A program made the position numbers and the translations under genes. A stretch of 63,133 nt of DNA, taken from NCBI GenBank assembly GCA_943357915.1, contig CALRGQ010000001.1:72816-135948 (forward strand). Direction: 5' to 3'. Positions 16,875 to 24,770 of this stretch are shown in pieces; within the stretch, counting starts at the first letter, position 1, and each line of letters begins with the position of its first letter. This DNA comes from Candidatus Peribacteria bacterium. GTDB taxonomy: Bacteria > Patescibacteriota > Gracilibacteria > Peribacterales > Peribacteraceae. The notes beneath the pieces are model-generated. The model made no database searches. It was not told the DNA's origin and worked only from the letters and a program-made list of their open reading frames with translations.

Positions 16875-17471
16875 GTGTCTCTTCTCCCTCCGCAAATCCA
16901 AAAGGCCATCGAGGAGTTTAGTAAACTCCCGGGCATCGGCCCCAAGTCCGCAGAACGGATGACGTTTCATTTACTGCGGTCCAGTAAAGCGACGCCGGAA
17001 GGCCTAGGGAATGCACTGATCGCACTGAAGCGTGATCTGAAGTATTGCAAAACATGTCAGATGATTTCTCTGAACGAAGAATGTTCGATTTGTGGTGACA
17101 GATCTCGTGATGCAACGCAGATTTTGGTCGTCGAGGAACCACTGGAAGTCGTCGCGTTTGAGAAAGCTGGATACAAAGGTCTGTATCACGTGCTGCATGG
17201 CGTGCTCTCACCGATTGATGGCATGGGACCTGAGCAGCTGAAGCTTAAAGAGTTGGTCGAGCGTTGCAAAACCGGCGAGATCGCAGAAGTTATCGTGGCG
17301 ACGAACTTAGATACCGAAGGTGAAGCCACAGCGGCGTACATTAAGCAGCAAGTAACGCCGAATGTGCAGAAAATTACTCGGCTCGCGCACGGTCTTCCTA
17401 TGGGTGCAGACATTGAGTTCGCGGATCAGGTCACGCTCAGAGAGGCGATTGCGGGGCGGAGGAGTGCTTAG
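16875..17471 (+). CDS. recR: Recombination mediator RecR
   Basis: LPGIGPKSAER HhH motif, C4 zinc finger, YHVLHG, EGEATA and ITRLAHGLPMG motifs. Confidence 0.97.
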   Translation: MSLLPPQIQKAIEEFSKLPGIGPKSAERMTFHLLRSSKATPEGLGNALIALKRDLKYCKTCQMISLNEECSICGDRSRDATQILVVEEPLEVVAFEKAGYKGLYHVLHGVLSPIDGMGPEQLKLKELVERCKTGEIAEVIVATNLDTEGEATAAYIKQQVTPNVQKITRLAHGLPMGADIEFADQVTLREAIAGRRSA

Positions 17472-18406
17472 AGTTTTTCCTGTACGAGCTTGATCGCATC
17501 ACCGATTCTTGGTTCACCGAGTGATCGCCAGCCAGATGAGGCCATACGTTCGTGTGCCGTCTGATCTGGTACCCACTTCACCACAACGTCGATGCCTCCG
17601 CCGTTTTGGTAGATACTAGAAACGCCGGGGTTTGCTTCGCCGAGAGACTGGGCGATTTCGAGCGGACCCGTCGGATGTGCGTGACCGTTGTGAGTGAGAA
17701 GCAGGTGCACACAGTTACGGCTATTGCCGGATTGTGATGCGATGCGGGCGATCTGTTCCCACTGTGACTCCGCGTTGTCGACACGCGTGATGACGTTACC
17801 GAAACGGTCAACGTACGCGACATGCCAGTCTGTGCGTGGATCGGGAATGTCCGAGATATTTGCATCCCGGAGCTCGAGCTTGTGATTGGGATTGAGAAGC
17901 CGAGGAGTAAGGCGGGAACGGAATTGTTCACGGCCGGTGTAAAGACCATTGAAGCCAGTGGGGTCGCTTGGGTTATCGAGATATTGAAGAGTTTCGATGT
18001 CGCCTTTGATCGCAGAAAGCCCTGAGAGAGGCGTCGAGACAATGTGGATATTTCCTTCTCTTGCAGTTGCGAGATAGAAAGGCTGGGCGTTGTTGCGTGC
18101 CACGCGTGGCGCGCTGTTGATGAAAACACCTGTACCACCTTTTATCGCAAAGTCGCGTTCTTCGTCAGACAAGTCTACGCGCCTCATCAGTTCGTCATGT
18201 TGTGAAACAACGAGTCTTAAAATGTGATCGGCGAGCGCTTCCTGGCCGAAAATGTCGAACTCGCGGTGAATGCGGTCTGTCGGTCGTCCGCCGAAATCGG
18301 TTGAGATCAAGACATCGGAATCTGGCTGTGTCAGGGGATTCGGTGGATCTTCCGGGCCTCCGTAGGTATCGGAGAGATAATAGGTGCGGAGAGGAGCATT
18401 TTGCAT
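17468..18406 (-). CDS. Divergent SAM hydroxide adenosyltransferase / DUF62 (chlorinase-fluorinase superfamily) protein
   Basis: ISTDFG (compare LTDFG), NSAPR, QFRSR (compare TFHGRD) and AYVDRFGNVIT (compare YIDxFGNxxT). Confidence 0.7.
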   Translation of the reverse strand: MQNAPLRTYYLSDTYGGPEDPPNPLTQPDSDVLISTDFGGRPTDRIHREFDIFGQEALADHILRLVVSQHDELMRRVDLSDEERDFAIKGGTGVFINSAPRVARNNAQPFYLATAREGNIHIVSTPLSGLSAIKGDIETLQYLDNPSDPTGFNGLYTGREQFRSRLTPRLLNPNHKLELRDANISDIPDPRTDWHVAYVDRFGNVITRVDNAESQWEQIARIASQSGNSRNCVHLLLTHNGHAHPTGPLEIAQSLGEANPGVSSIYQNGGGIDVVVKWVPDQTAHERMASSGWRSLGEPRIGDAIKLVQEKL

Positions 18407-18450
18407 GGTGGAAGTGGGAATTAGAGATGAGAAAGTGATATACGATCATA

Positions 18451-18476
18451 AGAAAAGTTCTCGCGATCTGCGCGAG
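18451..18476 (-). terminator. Attenuator hairpin of Met leader A1
   Basis: CTCGCG-CAGAT-CGCGAG then AACTTTTCT. The 5' arm can alternatively pair with leader segment 18514-18520. Confidence 0.6.
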
Positions 18477-18496
18477 TGGTGAGCTTGGTCGCGTGC

Positions 18497-18568
18497 TTAC
18501 GCGATCAGCGACCCCCGCGCGAGGCGCATCATGTCCATCATCATGCCGCTGGTGCGTAGGGTGCTCAT
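18497..18568 (-). CDS. Met-rich leader peptide A1, MSTLRTSGMMMDMMRLARGSLIA
   Basis: 23 aa ORF with 5 of 6 consecutive codons ATG. Paralogous to 22613-22687 and starts 8 nt after a -10 hexamer. Confidence 0.85.
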   Translation of the reverse strand: MSTLRTSGMMMDMMRLARGSLIA

Positions 18569-18576
18569 GCGCGCGC

Positions 18577-18604
18577 AGTATGGCGAAACCATAAAACACG
18601 TCAA
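18577..18604 (-). promoter_or_regulatory. Promoter for leader A1 (probably leaderless transcript)
   Basis: TTGACG, 16 nt, CATACT, 8 nt, ATG. Confidence 0.6.
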
Positions 18605-18675
18605 TCTTTCATGATAGGAAGATCGGTTTTTAGCTAGAGGATGAGCAAAAATCGTGCATCGACGACGGACGATAT

Positions 18676-18705
18676 CGCAGCGGAAGATCGCGATCTTCCG
18701 CTGCG
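18676..18705. repeat. Perfect 30 bp palindrome
   Basis: CGCAGCGGAAGATCG-CGATCTTCCGCTGCG, just downstream of the SIMPL remnant. Confidence 0.85.
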
Positions 18706-18721
18706 TGTGCGTGTGCTTTTT

Positions 18722-18973
18722 TTAGCGTAGTTCATACGAAATCGTCACATTCGACACGATTTCCTGCTCTCCGGCGGGAATTGGCATACTTTCCTGCGCG
18801 ACTGCATTACCCATATCGTAGTTTGCCTTCGTCAGCATTGGCGTCGGATAACCGTAGGCGCCATCTTCACTGAAGGCGGTCATGCGGCCGAGTGACATGC
18901 CAAGATTTTTTGCGAGCACTTCTGCTTTCGCTTTCGCCTTCTCGATTGCGATCTCACGAGCCTGCGCCTTCAT
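18722..18973 (-). pseudogene. 3' remnant of a SIMPL-domain gene
   Basis: 83 aa, differing at 4 positions from the C-terminus of 22856-23611, with many synonymous changes. Confidence 0.9.
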
Positions 18974-18979
18974 AAACTT

Positions 18980-19303
18980 CTATTTTTTGTCGAGTGCAAA
19001 CGGCTCAAACATGAGCACGTACGACTTCCCCACACTCTTCGGGCAGTGTTCCACTCCCTTTGGTACGATGCCAATTTCCCCTGCTTTCAGCACGAGATCA
19101 GACTCACCTTTCATCTGGATCGTGATTTCACCTTCGTGCACGAGGAAGAGTTCATCCTCGTTCTCATGCACGTGCCAATGATACTCACCCTCGAAGAGTG
19201 CGATGCGGACGACCTGATCGTTCACACGAGCGAGTTCGACCGGCGACCATGATTGCGTGATTTGTTGGATTGCATCGGCGATGGAAATGGGTTGGGGGAG
19301 CAT
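18980..19303 (-). CDS. Cupin domain protein
   Basis: GEYHWHVHENEDELFLVHEG and VPKGVEHCP cupin motifs. Confidence 0.92.
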   Translation of the reverse strand: MLPQPISIADAIQQITQSWSPVELARVNDQVVRIALFEGEYHWHVHENEDELFLVHEGEITIQMKGESDLVLKAGEIGIVPKGVEHCPKSVGKSYVLMFEPFALDKK

Positions 19304-19309
19304 AGGGGT

Positions 19310-20008
19310 TTAGAGAATGATACTGGGATGTTCTCTGTCGAGAATATCGATTCGCGCTTCTGCTTTGCAATGCTCTTTCACTAGTAGAGAAAGTTCTTCC
19401 AGAATTTCCTTCAAACGATCTTTCGTGAGAGGTGGGAAACCTTCCACGACGATAATCGCACGCTTCGTTTCAGCTGTGATCTTCGCTCGATCACCTTCTC
19501 GCCAATTGAGCTTCCTGCAAATTACGCCTGCATCGTCTTTGTACACGAGTTCTCCTACTGCTGGAGGATCCTCTACTGTTTCCCCGAGTGGAACAAAATG
19601 TTCGGTGCCCGTTGCGTATGCAAGCCGCACGTCGCCGGTGCACAGATCGGTATCTTCCGCACCGACACACACGACGTACTTCAGCGAGATGACATTGTAG
19701 AGGTTGACCAGTGGATTGATACTCGGGAGCTTCCCACCCTTCAGTACACGCTTGAGGAGAGCTTGCACTGAGGGCGGGAATTTATTCGGATTGTTTCCAA
19801 AGCTCCTGTGGACGGTCTGTATGGCGACGAGGTTCGGGTGATCTTTGAAGGAGTCAATGTTGTGCGATGTATGTACATGCTCTTCTGTTGCCTGCAGCAG
19901 CGCTGCCGATTCTCCGTGATCGACATTACTCATACCCGTTGCGACGATAACGCCAATGGCGATGTCCGGGTGGGCGGCGAGGACGGTGGGGTGGAGGAGG
20001 AAGTGCAT
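19310..20008 (-). CDS. B3/4 domain protein (PheRS editing-like)
   Basis: PSVQALLKRV, LPSINPLVNLYNVISL, GELVYKD and CRKLNWREGD motifs. Confidence 0.9.
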   Translation of the reverse strand: MHFLLHPTVLAAHPDIAIGVIVATGMSNVDHGESAALLQATEEHVHTSHNIDSFKDHPNLVAIQTVHRSFGNNPNKFPPSVQALLKRVLKGGKLPSINPLVNLYNVISLKYVVCVGAEDTDLCTGDVRLAYATGTEHFVPLGETVEDPPAVGELVYKDDAGVICRKLNWREGDRAKITAETKRAIIVVEGFPPLTKDRLKEILEELSLLVKEHCKAEARIDILDREHPSIIL

Positions 20009-20070
20009 GGGGGAGAGTAGAGAGTGATGAGAATTCTATAGTAGGGCAATAGTGTTTTATTGTAGAAACA

Positions 20071-20127
20071 GAGTTTGCGGATCAGTTCACGCTACGAGAG
20101 GCGATTGCGGGACTGAGGAGTGCGTAA
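20071..20127 (+). pseudogene. 3' remnant of recR (last 18 codons)
   Basis: EFADQFTLREAIAGLRSA* versus EFADQVTLREAIAGRRSA* at 17415-17471. Confidence 0.9.
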
Positions 20128-20169
20128 CAAGCGATTTCCTAATATTCACGTGCGACTCCTTAGGCGGAT

Positions 20170-20703
20170 TCATGTACTGAAAATATCGTTGGCAATCGTG
20201 ACGAGTTCCTCACGATCAACTTCGTCGAAAGCCTCAGTGAATTCGCTGTCTACATCGAGCACAGCGATCAGGTTCTTTTGCCGGTCAAATATCGGTACAA
20301 CGATCTCAGACTGAGACCTGCTATCACATGCGATATGACCGGGGAATTTTTGCACGCTGGGGACGATGATTGGCTTTTGTGAACGGGCACACGCCCCACA
20401 AACGCCACGATTGAAGTGGATACGCAGGCAGCCGAGAGTTCCCTGGTAGGGCCCTACGACGAGTTCGTCGCCTTTCGTTGGGTCTACTTGATAGAATCCC
20501 GTCCAGAAGAAATAAGGCAGGTGATGAGCGAGGATGCCAGTCACTGTCGCCATACGTGCAATGACATCGCTTTCTCCCTCCAGGACTGCGGAAGCAGTCT
20601 TTCGGGCTTGAAGGTAGATCGCCCGCTTTTCTGTTGCTGAAAGCAAGCGATGAGTCTGTTCATGAGGAAGCTGGTCGTTGATGGTGCTTGTAAGAGAAGA
20701 CAT
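20170..20703 (-). CDS. msrC: GAF-domain free methionine-(R)-sulfoxide reductase
   Basis: WTGFY, GPYQGTLGC, GVCG, FPGHIACD, SEIVVP and VLDVDS motifs, the fRMsr/YebR signature. Confidence 0.85.
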   Translation of the reverse strand: MSSLTSTINDQLPHEQTHRLLSATEKRAIYLQARKTASAVLEGESDVIARMATVTGILAHHLPYFFWTGFYQVDPTKGDELVVGPYQGTLGCLRIHFNRGVCGACARSQKPIIVPSVQKFPGHIACDSRSQSEIVVPIFDRQKNLIAVLDVDSEFTEAFDEVDREELVTIANDIFST

Positions 20704-20732
20704 GTAAAAGAATGGGGAAAGAGAAATAAATA

Positions 20733-22073
20733 TTACTTCAATCTGGTTTCTAAAATATGTTTAATAAGTGCTGGGCCAGTAACTTCTCCAAATGCATTGA
20801 ATGCAACGAGGGGTGCCCCGCCTTTTTCTGGAGCATGTGCCAAACCATTTGCATACACTCCAGGTATTACTGTGTCATTAAAGCCAATTACTTGGCCGTT
20901 GTCTGTTACACAAACAGCCTGTCGTCTCTCAGAAAGCTTTGGACCAAGTGGCATTCCACTTGAATCGTCTATTCTTACATAACTTGCCGGATATCCAGTT
21001 GCCACAATAATTATTTGTGCATTTTGATATTCTTCTTTGGCTTCAGATAAATGTTCAACTTGTTGGCTTGTAATCCTTTTCTCGTTTCCGGAGGTTGCCG
21101 CAAGAATGAGATCACGTGCTACATTGCGAATACCCTTCCAACGATGAACTGCAGGATGGTTAGGATCATTGTCTATGTCTCTCCGAGAGAAGTTTGTATA
21201 GCCTGCTAGCTCTGCTTCCTGCGAATTGGGGAAATATAGATATATTGGGCTACGGTGCACTATATGTGAGCCTCCTTCGGCAATATCAATTCCTTGCTGT
21301 TGAGCATGCTCAATTAATGCATAATTCCCTGAGCCTACGCTATAGGAACTCCCAACCCACACGACACCTCCTTTTTTTTGTGCTGCTAGAGCCACCTTAT
21401 GTAATTGGTGTATGTCTGAATGAACTGAGTCAGCAGTTATTATTTTTGCCTGAAAAGAATGTAATTCAGGTGGAATAGGCTGAGACTTGCCACCAGTTGC
21501 AAGAATAACATTTGTAGTAGAAAGTGCTGGCTCATTTTTGTCAGTATAAACATTCCAATCACCTCGGAAACACTGCTCAACAGTGTCAACAGTTTTATTT
21601 GGGAAGAAGTCACAGGAATGTATTCCCTTTAATACTTGATGAATTTTATCTCCTAAAGCATCTAAAAGATCTGCGATAGGTCCGAATCTAAGTACATCAT
21701 TTTCTGCAGCCACCTTCTTAGCTTCTGGTAAGCCTTGGAGGTCACCGAATACCTCATTTTGAGGTAGCCAATTTGTCCAGTCTGGACCTGGCGAATTACT
21801 TAAAAATGGTACATTTTCAAAATTTCTAAGAGATCCACTACCAATGCAATCTGATTGAGTTACCACCGCGATGCCACTACTTTCTTGATTATTTGATTCT
21901 ACTACTCTTCTAAATGCTGCTTTACCTTTATTAGCTAGCGCTAAGATAGTAGCTAAAGCTCCAGGCCCTCCTCCTGCAAGGAGGATACTATATTTTTTCT
22001 CACTTTCTTGTCGTGCGACTTCATCTCTCAGAAAACGATGGCCTGCCGATGGTGTAAGAGATTTTTTTTTCAC
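20733..22073 (-). CDS. FAD/NAD(P)-binding oxidoreductase, function unknown
   Basis: ILLAGGGPGA Rossmann motif, VILATGG, degenerate second motif VGSSYS, and IIVATGY. Visibly AT-richer than the core genes. Confidence 0.8.
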   Translation of the reverse strand: MKKKSLTPSAGHRFLRDEVARQESEKKYSILLAGGGPGALATILALANKGKAAFRRVVESNNQESSGIAVVTQSDCIGSGSLRNFENVPFLSNSPGPDWTNWLPQNEVFGDLQGLPEAKKVAAENDVLRFGPIADLLDALGDKIHQVLKGIHSCDFFPNKTVDTVEQCFRGDWNVYTDKNEPALSTTNVILATGGKSQPIPPELHSFQAKIITADSVHSDIHQLHKVALAAQKKGGVVWVGSSYSVGSGNYALIEHAQQQGIDIAEGGSHIVHRSPIYLYFPNSQEAELAGYTNFSRRDIDNDPNHPAVHRWKGIRNVARDLILAATSGNEKRITSQQVEHLSEAKEEYQNAQIIIVATGYPASYVRIDDSSGMPLGPKLSERRQAVCVTDNGQVIGFNDTVIPGVYANGLAHAPEKGGAPLVAFNAFGEVTGPALIKHILETRLK

Positions 22074-22107
22074 AATGGTATTGGGGAAATTAGTCTAATA
22101 AAAATAT

Positions 22108-22362
22108 TCAGTTTTTCCTGCGGAGCACATTTGCTATTGCGCTGCCTGCACAGTGGACTTGCTCCAAGCATTCGAGAAAAACCGCATCAGGTATCTCCTG
22201 TTCTCCTTGTTCAAGAGAGCGCTTTGCTCCTTGCCGCGCATCGATCCAAATTTTTCTTAGTTCGTCTTTTGTAAGGTTGGGACCTTCGAGAGCGAGTTCT
22301 TCGACAGACACAAGTTCCAACTTATCTGCTAATGGTTGCGTTGAGGGTTGAGTAGTAGCCAT
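22108..22362 (-). CDS. Small hypothetical protein (84 aa) with CxxxxxC
   Basis: MATTQPSTQP...ECLEQVHCAGS...RRKN. First ATG after the attenuator; the longer ORF start overlaps the leader and terminator. Confidence 0.7.
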   Translation of the reverse strand: MATTQPSTQPLADKLELVSVEELALEGPNLTKDELRKIWIDARQGAKRSLEQGEQEIPDAVFLECLEQVHCAGSAIANVLRRKN

Positions 22363-22391
22363 GGTAATGATTGGAATGAAAAGGGAATAAG

Positions 22392-22424
22392 AAAAAACAC
22401 CTCCGCGTGTAGTCCCGCGGGGTG
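22392..22424 (-). terminator. Intrinsic terminator of leader B attenuator
   Basis: CACC-CCGCG, loop, CGCGG-A-GGTG, then T6. Segment 22412-22421 is perfectly complementary to leader segment 22459-22468. Confidence 0.8.
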
Positions 22425-22444
22425 AGTCATGAGTCTTATTTCTC

Positions 22445-22540
22445 TCATGCCTTCGTCTCCCGCGGGACACGCATGCACATACACATCATCGCCATAACGC
22501 GATTTGTGATGAGGCCGGAGGAGAAGGAGTGGTGGTTCAT
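22445..22540 (-). CDS. Met/Cys-rich leader peptide B, MNHHSFSSGLITNRVMAMMCMCMRVPRETKA
   Basis: 31 aa ORF with an MAMMCMCM control region directly before the antiterminator strand. Confidence 0.8.
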   Translation of the reverse strand: MNHHSFSSGLITNRVMAMMCMCMRVPRETKA

Positions 22541-22567
22541 GGGATCAGAATATTTTCATTGATACGG

Positions 22568-22592
22568 AAAAGTGCCCCGCGATCTGCGCGAG
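22568..22592 (-). terminator. Attenuator hairpin of Met leader A2
   Basis: CTCGCG-CAGAT-CGCGGG then GCACTTTT. Homologous to 18451-18476; alternative pairing with 22630-22636. Confidence 0.6.
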
Positions 22593-22612
22593 TGGTGATG
22601 GTGTGCGATTCT

Positions 22613-22687
22613 TTACGCAGCAACCAACCCTCGCGCTAGGCGCATCATCATGCTCATCATCATGGTGGTGGGTCGGAGAGTTGTCAT
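22613..22687 (-). CDS. Met-rich leader peptide A2, MTTLRPTTMMMSMMMRLARGLVAA
   Basis: 24 aa ORF with 6 of 7 consecutive codons ATG. Paralog of A1; preceded by TCGACA-17-TTAAAT-8 nt. Confidence 0.85.
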   Translation of the reverse strand: MTTLRPTTMMMSMMMRLARGLVAA

Positions 22688-22855
22688 GTGCGCATATTTA
22701 AATGCCATATCGTATTTTTGTCGAGAGTTTTGGAGCATTGTTTCTATACATGGCTTATGGATGCGGGAAAATAGTGGTGGTTGTTTACTTGACACGTCAC
22801 CTTTCCACAAAAAAGACGCGCACATTGCACGTCTCTATTCTTTCTGCAGTACTAT

Positions 22856-23611
22856 TTAGCGTAGTTCATACGAAATCGTCACATTCGACACGATTTCCTG
22901 CTCTCCGGCTGGGATAGGCATGCTTTCCTGTGCCACCGCTCCTCCCATATCGTAATTCGCCTTTGTCATCATTGGCGTCGGATAAGCGTAGGCGCCATCT
23001 TCACTGAAGGCAGTCATACGGCCGAGTGACATACCGAGATTCTTCGCAAGAACCGTTGCTTTTGCCTTCGCTTTCTCGATAGCGATCTCACGAGCCTGTG
23101 CCTTCATGGCATCCGGATTATCGACGGTGAATGTAATGCCACCAGCCTGATTTGCGCCGGCGGTCGTAGCGACGGTGAGGACATCACCGACTTTATCAAG
23201 ATCACGGACTTTGACCCGCAGTGTCTGTGTTGCCTGAAATCCACGTGGGATCTGCCCGCCGGTTGTGTAGTCGTACTCGGGGCTCAGGTAGAAGCTTTCG
23301 GTTGCAATGTCTTTCTCTTCAATGCCGAGTTCTTTCACTGCTACCAAAATATTTGTCATATTTTTCTTGATGACGTCGGTTGCAGCTTTTGCGTTGGGCT
23401 GTCTGCCGGTCGTGACGCCGAAGCTCATGTACGCGATGTCCGGCGGTGTCGAAATTTTTCCTTCTGCACTGACTGAAATCACCGGGGGATTTGTGAGTGG
23501 GCCTTTAACTTCCATCTGTTTGCCGGCGAGAAAGAACGCACCGCCGATGATGACGGCAGTGATCAGAGCCCAGACGGGCGGATGCAGGGTGGTGGTGTTT
23601 GAATCAGACAT
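22856..23611 (-). CDS. SIMPL domain (DUF541/YggE-like) protein
   Basis: N-terminal TM segment, ISVSAEG...PD.A, LGIEEKDIAT, GANQ and PGEQ-like C-terminal motif. Confidence 0.92.
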   Translation of the reverse strand: MSDSNTTTLHPPVWALITAVIIGGAFFLAGKQMEVKGPLTNPPVISVSAEGKISTPPDIAYMSFGVTTGRQPNAKAATDVIKKNMTNILVAVKELGIEEKDIATESFYLSPEYDYTTGGQIPRGFQATQTLRVKVRDLDKVGDVLTVATTAGANQAGGITFTVDNPDAMKAQAREIAIEKAKAKATVLAKNLGMSLGRMTAFSEDGAYAYPTPMMTKANYDMGGAVAQESMPIPAGEQEIVSNVTISYELR

Positions 23612-23690
23612 AAGAGAGGAGGGGAAAGAGAGTGTTTCAGTAGATACTACGTATGAGCGACTGGAACGTTACAGAGTTCCATTGTCTTCG

Positions 23691-24770
23691 TCAGCTTTTC
23701 TTTGCCAATAGGGTGTAACGTATGGCTCTTCCGCTGCCAATCCGCACAATTTTTTTCAGAGCGACGAGCTTTCTTAGCACTTGATCGACCGTTCTAATAT
23801 TAACTCCTGTTTTTTCAGATACTTCTTTTCTGCTCATATTCTTTGCCTCCTGGAGTGTTTTCCAGACGATCAATTGATTCTCTGAAAGAAAGTTCTCGGT
23901 TTGGTCTTCTTTTGTGAGAGCAACGGCCATCTCTCCCTGTCGAGCAAACATGCGAAGGATAAAGAGAATCCACGGTGAAATGTCTTCATGAGCCTTCTTC
24001 CATGTCGAGGTTGATTTCTTGAGCGCGAGATAATAATCCACTTTGTGGTCTTCAATAATCTTCTCATGGGAGATATAGGGAGTGAATCCATAACCATGTT
24101 GTAATAAGAGAAGATTCGTGAGAATGCGACTTGTTCTGCCGTTTCCATCCTGAAAAGGATGAATGGCGAGATACTCAAAAATGAAGTTTGCGATGATAAG
24201 AAGTGGATGGAACATATGCTCTTTAAATTGTGCTTGCGTCCATTCCGTCAGTTCTTGCATCTCTTTTCCGGTCAGGTATGGCGGAGTCGGATCGAAGATA
24301 ATGCCAACGACTTTCCCCTGTGCATCTACAGCTTCGACGCGGTTCGGAGCGAATTTGTATTGCCCTTTATGACGGACATCTTTCTCACTATGTCGTAATG
24401 TCGATACGTGCATATGCTTAATGAGGTTTTCCGAGAACTTCATGGCATTCCACGATTCAAAAACATTTTTGATTGTTTCAAGATAGCCCATAACTTCCTG
24501 CTCATCGCGGGTGCGAAGTTTTCGTATTTTGGCATTTCGCAGGAGCTGTTCCACTTCCTCATCACTAAGATGGCTCCCCTCAATGCGTGTTGAAGAGCCG
24601 CTAGAACTTACAATGATCGCATGCTTCATTCTTGCCAAGTATTCTGGAGAGAGAAGCTGGAAGGCTTCCCAGTAGCCCTTACATTCATCGATTCGCGCCA
24701 AGAGCTTGGTGATCTCTCTCGTGACTTCCGGAGAATAGTGGAGCCGTTTTTGGAAGCGGTTGTGCGTCAT
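23691..24770 (-). CDS. Fic family protein with C-terminal HTH
   Basis: Canonical HPFQDGNGRTSR motif and N-terminal STRIEG inhibitory-type motif. Confidence 0.93.
   Translation of the reverse strand: MTHNRFQKRLHYSPEVTREITKLLARIDECKGYWEAFQLLSPEYLARMKHAIIVSSSGSSTRIEGSHLSDEEVEQLLRNAKIRKLRTRDEQEVMGYLETIKNVFESWNAMKFSENLIKHMHVSTLRHSEKDVRHKGQYKFAPNRVEAVDAQGKVVGIIFDPTPPYLTGKEMQELTEWTQAQFKEHMFHPLLIIANFIFEYLAIHPFQDGNGRTSRILTNLLLLQHGYGFTPYISHEKIIEDHKVDYYLALKKSTSTWKKAHEDISPWILFILRMFARQGEMAVALTKEDQTENFLSENQLIVWKTLQEAKNMSRKEVSEKTGVNIRTVDQVLRKLVALKKIVRIGSGRAIRYTLLAKKS

Follow-up and report, generated by a model that had tools for sequence, protein, structure and literature searches.

The question raised by this locus is what two short, methionine-rich open reading frames (ORFs), each followed by the same 21-nucleotide sequence, are sensing, and by what means. 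The two ORFs, designated here as A1 and A2, lie on the minus strand of a 63,133-nucleotide stretch of DNA from a Candidatus Peribacteria genome (the stretch is referred to as the window, and the genome under study as G000). An earlier note had described them as paralogous leaders that define a regulatory family, with selection acting on both the peptide and the RNA structure and with the peptide motif RLARG as a possible arrest signal. The analysis presented here suggests, with a probability of about 0.8, that A1 and A2 are ribosome-mediated transcription attenuators that sense Met-tRNA by means of a run of five or six Met codons. The elements on which this reading is based are as follows.

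18497-18568, minus strand: the A1 leader ORF, with its ATG at 18568 and its TAA ending at 18497; 23 codons plus TAA, peptide MSTLRTSGMMMDMMRLARGSLIA.
22613-22687, minus strand: the A2 leader ORF, with its ATG at 22687 and its TAA ending at 22613; 24 codons plus TAA, peptide MTTLRPTTMMMSMMMRLARGLVAA.
18527-18544, minus strand: the A1 Met run, ATG ATG ATG GAC ATG ATG, which is the proposed stall site.
22643-22663, minus strand: the A2 Met run, ATG ATG ATG AGC ATG ATG ATG.
18462-18482, minus strand: the A1 copy of the conserved 21-mer, containing the antiterminator 3' strand (CACCACUCGCGC) and overlapping the terminator hairpin.

A direct reading of the minus strand confirms the resemblance described in the earlier note, namely that the two peptides share M(S/T)TLR, a run of five (A1) versus six (A2) Met codons within six to seven codons, RLARG, and a terminal Ala followed by TAA. 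The 21-mer, TCACCACTCGCGCAGATCGCG, is positioned 3' of both ORFs and is exact at 18462-18482 and 22578-22598 of the minus strand. Its two matches in the window compare with 0.01 expected, and none of 100 shuffles contained two or more. Throughout the genome (1,394,790 bases in 66 contigs, 97% complete) it occurs exactly twice, with no match for a reversed control, and a search of metagenome contigs for the exact 21-mer returned zero matches. The identity between the two copies is 100% for the 21-mer and 70% for the short ORF. The spacers between the stop codon and the 21-mer, 13-14 nucleotides in length, do diverge as had been claimed, with an identity of 47% (shuffled mean 53%), and the ∼160 intergenic nucleotides upstream of the ATG are 52% identical (shuffled mean 49%, maximum 54%). 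Of 37 Met-rich windows across G000, only A1, A2, and a second leader located behind A2 are intergenic short ORFs. Three other Met-rich candidates in this genome (C5, C1, and C3) were dropped as alternative frames of genes or as lying over an acidic-repeat ORF.

In both copies, the stretch from just after the last Met codon to the 5' arm of the terminator folds as one long hairpin. The RNA structures are the following.

18470-18520, minus strand: the A1 antiterminator hairpin, with an outer helix formed by GCGCGGGGGU and ACCACUCGCGC and an inner helix that encloses the UAA stop in the apical loop.
22586-22636, minus strand: the A2 antiterminator hairpin, with the same architecture as that of A1 and an inner helix of different sequence.
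18450-18476, minus strand: the A1 terminator, CTCGCG-CAGAT-CGCGAG, then AAC TTTTCTT; listed as terminator-like by the scan, -8.6 kcal/mol.
22568-22598, minus strand: the A2 copy of the 21-mer with its hairpin, CTCGCG-CAGAT-CGCGGG, followed by GCAC TTTT, which makes a weak terminator.

The predicted energy of the A1 antiterminator hairpin is -27.6 kcal/mol (z -2.49), with 3 of 200 shuffles folding as well, and that of A2 is -25.8 kcal/mol (z -3.86), with 0 of 200. Both are far stronger than the corresponding terminators (-8.6 and -8.2 kcal/mol). The inner helices of A1 and A2 differ in sequence, the helix itself is retained, and the UAA stop is found in the apical loop of both. The antiterminator strands, GCGCGGG in A1 versus GCGCGAG in A2, both face CTCGCGC as claimed previously. 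The 7-bp antiterminator drawn in the earlier note does pair, but it is just the base of a hairpin that is far longer and has the stop codon inside it. Indeed, the pairing of this base, GCGCG(G/A)GGGU, with ACCACUCGCGC explains the presence of CACCAC within the invariant 21-mer. A scan of positions 17000-24000 against Rfam, on both strands at E ≤ 1, matched no leader or riboswitch family, and the only three matches were at chance level and to unrelated families (a miRNA and a plastid intron).

On the basis of these features, the following course of events is proposed. Transcription would start a few bases past the -10 element, with the mRNA beginning at or beside the AUG, so that the ORF would be leaderless and would lack a Shine-Dalgarno sequence. 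When Met-tRNA(Met) is plentiful, the ribosome would pass through the Met run and the next nine codons to the UAA, and its passage would melt the 5' strand of the long hairpin that bears the stop codon in its apical loop. The freed CUCGCG would then pair with CGCGAG or CGCGGG, and transcription would stop at the U tract. When Met-tRNA is scarce, the ribosome would stall in the Met run, at least 7 nucleotides upstream of the hairpin, and the antiterminator hairpin of -26 to -28 kcal/mol would form and sequester CUCGCGC. RNA polymerase would thereby read through, in the case of A1 into a gene for an S-adenosylmethionine (SAM) hydrolase-like protein, and in the case of A2 into a second attenuator of the Met/Cys type and then into an operon encoding a free-methionine-sulfoxide reductase (fRMsr). 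In the absence of any translation the antiterminator is also expected to form, and failed initiation for lack of Met would consequently switch the genes on as well.

Related loci were gathered from the Peribacteraceae in two ways, via orthologues of the gene behind A1, which encodes a 312-residue protein and is found in 48 of the 151 sampled family genomes, and via the pattern ATGATGNNNATGATGATG. Many of the orthologue loci carry a Met-rich short ORF upstream. The pattern matched in 76 of the 151 genomes, and a reversed control matched much more rarely. The pattern loci studied comprised 30 that were returned and 40 more that were chosen by hand, and thus not at random, from the list; matches with ACG as the middle codon or with pure ATG repeats were discarded because these are typically acidic repeats read in another frame. 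The fetched loci contained 100 distinct windows with at least four Met in seven residues, 65 of which fall in ORFs of no more than 60 codons. A terminator-like hairpin is positioned within 70 nucleotides past the stop in 55 of these 65 short ORFs versus 8 of 33 Met-rich windows inside long ORFs. In 54 distinct Met-rich short ORFs, the terminator starts within 40 nucleotides of the stop (at 17-29 nucleotides in all but two), and in 44 of the 54 the segment following the Met run pairs with the 5' arm of the terminator better than do shuffles (p ≤ 0.05, mean z -2.95). The Met codons, which the earlier note had expected other copies to keep, are retained across the fetched family leaders at four to seven per leader.

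An alignment of 45 leaders allowed the two competing helices to be assessed separately. For the terminator, 84.7% of the cells in the alignment are paired as compared to at most 55.9% when the pairing is slid, both partners have changed in four of the eight pairs, and none of 500 shuffles attains the covariation score. For the antiterminator core (GCGAGGG with CCCUCGC), 88.9% of the cells are paired versus at most 58.9% when slid. Covariation comes instead from the variable part of the pairing. In an alignment-free test of it, the tail of each ORF paired with its own spacer at a mean of -10.56 kcal/mol versus -7.27 kcal/mol with the spacers of other leaders, and the cognate mean was reached by 0 of 5000 permutations. 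The cognate spacer ranked in the top five of 45 for 22 leaders; the number of non-cognate spacers pairing at least as well was 2 for A1 and 10 for A2. In other genomes, the sequence of the 21-mer has been replaced by others that remain complementary to the tail of their own ORF. In G004, a genome of the same genus, regions 2, 3, and 4 have changed together (CGCGCGG / CCGCGCG / CGCGCGG). The terminator/antiterminator logic put forward in the earlier note is upheld by these pairing and covariation tests on the family.

A covariance model was constructed from the 45 aligned leaders and searched in 150 genomes of the family, with E-values that are to be taken as rough. At E ≤ 0.001 it matched in 121 genomes, many of the weak matches being partial and probably representing plain terminators. 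At E ≤ 1e-8, among the matches listed, there are ∼80 in ∼70 genomes, nearly all full-length, and the proposal that the two copies define a regulatory family is well borne out. A2 and A1 themselves score at 7.8e-20 and 1.6e-15, respectively. A blastn search with the A1 leader against 60 relatives yielded a single informative match (in G028, E 1.9e-4), the remainder being ATG repeats or noise. Note that in AT-rich Peribacteria-like genomes (loci L098, L101, L105, and L107) the leaders with a Met run have tails and terminators of quite another sequence (AAUCCCG.., CCACGAA..), although every tail is still complementary to the terminator arm of its own leader. These leaders look like an independent re-tuning of the same design.

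The conserved Arg-Gly that follows the Met run brings up a different possibility, namely nascent-peptide arrest, in which a small molecule such as free Met or SAM would be sensed in the exit tunnel and the Met run together with xxxRG would constitute the arrest peptide. There is an example in TnaC, the nascent peptide of which senses Trp in the ribosome exit tunnel. The geometry of the leaders is in keeping with such a mechanism, given that Arg-Gly is located at a fixed distance of three codons after the Met run in 39 of the 45 leaders and that, in most of the 54, 30 nucleotides separate the last Met codon from the end of the stop. The use of codons, however, argues otherwise. The Arg triplet is CGA in 43 of the 45 leaders, whereas CGA accounts for 13% of the Arg codons in long ORFs of G000. 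A1 is one of the two non-CGA leaders, and its CGG at this position is the reason for the G-U pair recorded in the earlier note. Two of the 45 leaders read CGAGG in a different frame (..SPRRR, ..LARAE) and retain the RNA pairing. The three residues preceding the Arg vary freely (RLA, RSV, TPL, SPL, HSL, and others), and few leaders other than A1 and A2 have RLARG as a peptide. Taken together, the bias toward CGA, the shifts of frame, and the variable preceding residues point to a constraint acting on the RNA, in the strand whose partner is CCUCG of the terminator arm, and the conserved "RG" is, as judged from these alignments, the translation of a conserved RNA strand. Additionally, an arrest triggered by abundant Met would turn on the genes that supply Met when they are not needed. 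Peptide arrest is accordingly regarded as quite improbable. With respect to the proposal of selection on both peptide and RNA, the part concerning the RNA holds in the form of the CGAGG/CCUCG pairing, but that concerning the peptide does not extend beyond the Met codons. The suggestion that RLARG is an arrest motif is unsupported, only the nucleotide motif CGAGG being conserved.

The element might, alternatively, function as RNA only, either in a riboswitch-like manner or by binding a protein, for example a dimeric regulator on CGCG-N5-CGCG, with the ATG repeats serving as an untranslated motif. Such a role would accommodate the complete identity of the 21-mer between two copies with randomised flanks, and its inverted repeat could equally be an operator. 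It does not accommodate the behavior of the reading frame: the codon that interrupts the Met run differs at each of its three positions, yet the ATGs and the frame are retained, the stop codon lies at a fixed distance, and an ATG or GTG is found 4-15 nucleotides after the -10 element in most members. Nor does it fit with the null result of the Rfam scan or with the replacement of the 21-mer in other genomes by sequences that retain their complementarity to the ORF tail. An RNA-only element thus appears very improbable.

It is also conceivable that the Met-rich peptides are themselves functional small proteins, oxidant-scavenging or metal-binding, and that the hairpin is simply their terminator. 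The genetic context is indeed rich in oxidative-stress and Met-sulfoxide functions (SIMPL, Met-sulfoxide reductase), and leader peptides can act in trans, as described for peTrpL in the available part of a published account (PMC7298713). The peptide, however, is poorly conserved apart from Met, and the complementarity of the ORF tail to the terminator arm in 44 of 54 leaders is something that a plain terminator does not need. In addition, the genes that follow are in the same orientation and at a short distance. The likelihood of functional peptides is considered to be very small.

Attenuation by way of the Met codons presupposes that the short ORFs are translated. Promoter-like sites lie upstream of both.

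18577-18604, minus strand: the A1 promoter-like site, TTGACG-16-CATACT, ending 8 nucleotides before the ATG; found by the scan.
22696-22724, minus strand: the A2 promoter-like site, TCGACA-17-TTAAAT, ending 8 nucleotides before the ATG; weaker and read by eye.

The 8-nucleotide gap from a -10-like hexamer is present in both copies as had been noted (CATACT-8-ATG in A1 and TTAAAT-8-ATG in A2), although the A2 hexamer fails the rule of the scan. The gap is likewise 8 nucleotides in G003, of the same genus, and 9 in G004, and the four genus-level copies align as CATACT/CACACT/TTAAAT, then 8-9 nucleotides, then ATG. Across the family, a promoter-like TTGACA-16/17-TAnnnT is observed for 43 of the 54 leaders, with an in-frame ATG 4-15 nucleotides after the -10 in 22 of these 43. 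Nineteen ORFs apparently start with the Met run itself. Of these, 15 have an in-frame GTG 18-33 nucleotides upstream, which is positioned 6-9 nucleotides after the -10, and one of the 19 has a Shine-Dalgarno-like motif. Because the promoters sit so close to the start codons, the leader ORFs look leaderless, with the transcription start placed by geometry.

The genes that would be regulated are considered next, together with the second leader behind A2.

17468-18406, minus strand: the gene for the 312-residue protein behind A1, with a predicted DUF62 / SAM hydroxide adenosyltransferase fold.
22393-22540, minus strand: the second, Met/Cys-rich leader (B type), peptide ..MAMMCMCMRVPRETKA; unrelated to the A type and in tandem behind A2.
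18980-22362, minus strand: the operon behind A2 and the second leader, encoding proteins of 84 residues, 446 residues (FAD-like), 177 residues (fRMsr), 232 residues (B3/4), and 107 residues (cupin).
20170-20703, minus strand: the gene for the 177-residue putative free Met-R-sulfoxide reductase (GAF-type fRMsr), with matches to solved fRMsr proteins.
19310-20008, minus strand: the gene for a 232-residue protein with a stand-alone B3/4 domain, which resembles CtdA, a canavanyl-tRNA deacylase (E 1e-29).
20733-22073, minus strand: the gene for the 446-residue FAD-like protein, ∼40% G+C versus 50-55% in its surroundings.

The AlphaFold2 model of the 312-residue protein has a pLDDT of 89.1, and all 40 of its 40 Foldseek hits at E ≤ 0.001 are to DUF62, SalL, chlorinase, or fluorinase structures, with E-values down to 1e-10, a probability of 1.00, and TM scores of 0.41-0.58. 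A profile of 25 homologues matches the MJ1651 SAM hydrolase at E 0.04, and DRFGN is retained. A comparison with NCBIfam gave no match, and neither did a search of PDB sequences with the 312-residue protein alone. Enzymes of the DUF62 fold split SAM into adenosine (or a halo-adenosine) and L-methionine. The model thus places the protein within the fold of the SAM-splitting enzymes, and it may cleave SAM.

The second leader contains a 10-bp antiterminator formed by GTCCCGCGGG and CCCGCGGGAC and a strong terminator at 22420-22403 of the minus strand, which was listed by the scan (-16.3 kcal/mol). The occurrence of A type and Met/Cys B type leaders in tandem before DUF62-like genes at three further loci (L156, L167, and L171) indicates that the tandem of A2 and B is a recurrent design. 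B-type leaders such as ..MRMCMRVPRAIRA and ..MMSMCMRVPRAMRV precede DUF62-like genes in other Peribacteraceae, some of them singly and some paired with an A-type leader. Between the Met attenuator and the regulated gene, several genomes, the same-genus G003 among them, have another conserved short ORF, M(K/R)L(F/Y)ILYLRT..MLMR.. (L035, L036, L039, L041, and L068, and L190 around 1480-1540); it may be a degenerate leader of the Met/Cys type.

Within the operon, the 177-residue protein gives full-length matches to 3mmh (4.5e-32), 3ksf (6e-31), 1f5m (YKL069W, 2e-28), and 1vhm (YebR, 2e-25), with three aligned Cys residues and HIACD retained. The B3/4 protein may clear tRNA mischarged with a methionine analogue, as its likeness to CtdA suggests. 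No Pfam, NCBIfam, or PDB sequence match above threshold was obtained for the 446-residue protein, and its gene is probably foreign. The 84-residue protein received no assignment from the Pfam and NCBIfam scans; a possible relation to a ∼70-residue family found behind other leaders was rejected (hmmsearch score 1.0).

The first three ORFs behind each of the 54 leaders were counted, the calling of ORFs being crude. For all 54, they include a DUF62-like gene in 30 cases, a homocysteine S-methyltransferase gene (PF02574) in 6, a gene for the small ∼70-residue protein in 7, and other genes in 11. This count is biased because many of the loci were fetched through the DUF62-like gene. The 44 leaders selected by the pattern are less biased, and for these the numbers are 21, 6, 7, and 10, respectively. 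One further locus carries a methyltransferase gene followed by a MetE-like Meth_synt_2 gene. When examined for methionine and SAM functions, as the earlier note had proposed, the genes behind the leaders are enriched for them, most being predicted to supply methionine, and include those for fRMsr, the DUF62 fold, PF02574, and Meth_synt_2. The ∼70-residue protein is followed by a HisRS-like gene in three cases. In L169, L170, and L178, mixed Met and His leaders (MMHMMMHSLRG..) are positioned before the 70-residue protein and then a gene for a HisRS-like class II synthetase. In the relatives, a ∼220-residue Pro-rich protein, 67-79% identical across genera and with no Pfam match, often follows the gene controlled by the Met leader. 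It was not counted as a member of the regulon, its copy in G000 being located elsewhere (contig C14:15455-16084) and without a Met leader.

With regard to the supply of methionine, G000 was searched for homocysteine S-methyltransferase, the MetE catalytic domain, and the bacterial and archaeal SAM synthetases, and no PF02574, PF01717, PF02773, or PF01941 gene was found; given that the genome is 97% complete, these genes are described as not found rather than absent. The gene content suggests that the organism probably depends on salvage for Met, and it may import both SAM and Met.

The similarity between A1 and A2 extends upstream into the coding sequence of a SIMPL gene, a feature that was missed in the earlier note.

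18722-18973, minus strand: a copy of the 3' end of the SIMPL gene, 252 nucleotides and 83 codons, intact; it starts 6 nucleotides after the cupin stop.
22856-23611, minus strand: the full-length SIMPL/DUF541 gene upstream of A2, which is the conserved upstream neighbor of the leader in the genus.

The SIMPL 3' end, the spacer, the leader, and the hairpin thus make up the repeated unit, and the two units flank a 3.4-kb block containing the second Met/Cys leader and five genes. The fragment and the full-length gene are 87% identical in nucleotide sequence, with 24 synonymous and 4 non-synonymous codon differences; either purifying selection has acted on the fragment, or a relative was its recent source. 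With differences that are mostly synonymous and spacers at random-level identity, the two modules would seem to have diverged while functional, perhaps in separate lineages, and only later to have come together. The term "paralogous" used in the earlier note consequently holds insofar as a module of SIMPL 3' end and leader is duplicated, but it may mean "brought together" instead of "duplicated in place." The interval from the SIMPL fragment to A1 holds a near-perfect GC-rich palindrome, GCAGCGGAAGATCGCGATCTTCCGCTGC, at 18673-18707. On the minus strand the palindrome is not followed by a U tract, and its Rfam match to a miRNA model is at chance level only.

In G003 the order of genes is SIMPL, Met leader, homocysteine S-methyltransferase (PF02574 by Pfam), recR, smpB, and prepilin peptidase. 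In G004 it is SIMPL, leader, and one gene up to the end of the contig, that gene being taken as of the PF02574 type by eye from its N-terminal likeness to that of G003. The flanks in G000 are as in G003, and between them are SIMPL, A2, B, the five genes, the SIMPL fragment, A1, the DUF62-like gene, and recR. The simplest reading of this arrangement would be replacement or insertion of genes by recombination, with the SIMPL 3' end and the leader serving as a homologous anchor.

Several observations weigh against the attenuation model. The A1 terminator is short, with 6 bp and -8.6 kcal/mol. That of A2 is marginal: its 6-bp stem contains a G-U pair, its four U's are offset by 4 nucleotides, its energy of -8.2 kcal/mol corresponds to a z of -1.23, and it was not listed by the terminator scan. 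Folds of the whole 146-nucleotide leaders do not clearly surpass chance, with z-values of -1.33 (A1) and -1.91 (A2); 17 and 9 of 200 shuffles, respectively, do as well. The core of the antiterminator hardly varies, and 181 of 500 shuffles reach its covariation score, so that what has been demonstrated for it is conserved complementarity and not covariation. The covariance model drew its sequences from the very genomes in which it then matched, and 45 of its matches are its own training sequences. Because the members of the family are related, the per-leader tests are not independent. RNAalifold gave no structure on a first MAFFT alignment of 12 sequences, in which the terminators were out of register, and for this reason the alignment of 45 sequences and explicit pair counts were used instead. 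As for the target genes, the 312-residue protein is below the Pfam cut-off (SAM_HAT_C, 18.6 versus 25.5 bits) with no match to SAM_HAT_N, and 17 of the 44 pattern-selected leaders precede genes with no recognizable link to methionine (the 70-residue protein and assorted unknowns).

A broader picture can be offered more tentatively, at somewhat less than even odds. The Peribacteraceae, apparently unable to make Met or SAM, might run a Met-starvation regulon entirely through leaderless Met-codon attenuators, which would read both failed initiation and stalled elongation as "no Met" and would switch on the regeneration of Met, with scavenged SAM, Met-sulfoxide, or homocysteine as its source. Together with the SIMPL 3' end, the attenuator might also form a portable unit of recombination that lets lineages exchange the enzyme under its control, a homocysteine methyltransferase in the relatives and, here, the SAM-hydrolase-like gene and the fRMsr operon.

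The family would tie the DUF62-like enzyme, the B3/4 tRNA-deacylase-like protein, the 446-residue flavoprotein-like protein, and other proteins of unknown function into an inferred methionine-salvage response, and a shared regulon provides testable functional predictions for them. A Met attenuator would, in addition, be among the few regulatory mechanisms that can be read in bacteria of the candidate phyla radiation (CPR), which cannot be cultured.

Methionine is the textbook case of an amino acid whose genes are under riboswitches, T-boxes, or repressors and not under leader peptides, and a well-supported family of Met-codon attenuators would fill the methionine gap in leader-peptide control. 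The classical enterobacterial attenuators are the trpL, hisL, leuL, thrL, pheL, and ilv leaders, represented in Rfam by Trp_leader, His_leader, Leu_leader, and Thr_leader. The Peribacteraceae leaders resemble these in several respects: a short ORF upstream of the genes contains the codons for the regulated amino acid in a run, the predicted antiterminator and terminator hairpins exclude one another, the predicted terminator comes just past the ORF, and the downstream genes would supply the cognate amino acid. They differ in that the sensing codons are those for Met, the ORF looks leaderless and without a Shine-Dalgarno sequence, and the targets are salvage enzymes in a CPR bacterium rather than a biosynthetic operon. 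They also have no obvious region 1:2 pause hairpin, and the absence of translation should thus give read-through and not super-attenuation.

Literature searches uncovered no paper describing a Met-codon leader attenuator, the one precedent being a predicted metG leader of Deinococcus deserti. In that organism a leaderless arrangement has been published for predicted leader peptides, and Table S9 of the report contains, before the gene for methionine-tRNA ligase, the Met-rich leader MMFRFLSKMRMLRCS with three internal Met codons that are not in a run (PMC4007540). The likeness is that the peptide begins at the 5' end of the transcript, here by geometry, and that one predicted member is Met-rich and precedes a methionine-related gene. 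The D. deserti case differs in being a single predicted entry in a supplementary table, for which the available part of the report gives no structure or comparative support (PMC4007540). Furthermore, it regulates an aminoacyl-tRNA synthetase and is unrelated in sequence to the Peribacteraceae leaders.

The known RNA controls of methionine genes are, according to the portions available of two accounts, the SAM (S-box) riboswitches and the Met T-boxes (PMC1262725, PMC2965389). They share with the present leaders a premature terminator as the output and the same kinds of target genes, but they bind SAM or uncharged tRNA directly, without translation, and neither was matched in the Rfam scan of positions 17000-24000. 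Leader peptides with Cys codons precede cys/cbs genes in Mycobacterium, Propionibacterium, and Bifidobacterium (PMC1262725, in the part consulted here), and these, too, are sulfur amino-acid leaders outside the Proteobacteria; codons for both Met and Cys are present in the second leader behind A2. As far as that part of the 2005 survey goes, the Cys leaders have no recognizable terminator and were proposed to be Rho-dependent, whereas intrinsic terminators are the rule in the Peribacteraceae (55 of 65), and the survey states explicitly that no RNA element was found before methionine operons in Actinobacteria (PMC1262725). Leader-peptide attenuation is a classical mechanism; its specificity for Met, its leaderless form, and a salvage regulon in the CPR are as yet uncatalogued. 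As compared to the known systems the proposed design is unusual in being leaderless, in having the stop codon in the antiterminator loop, and in having read-through as its default when translation fails, a default that suits this amino acid since methionine is also needed for initiation.

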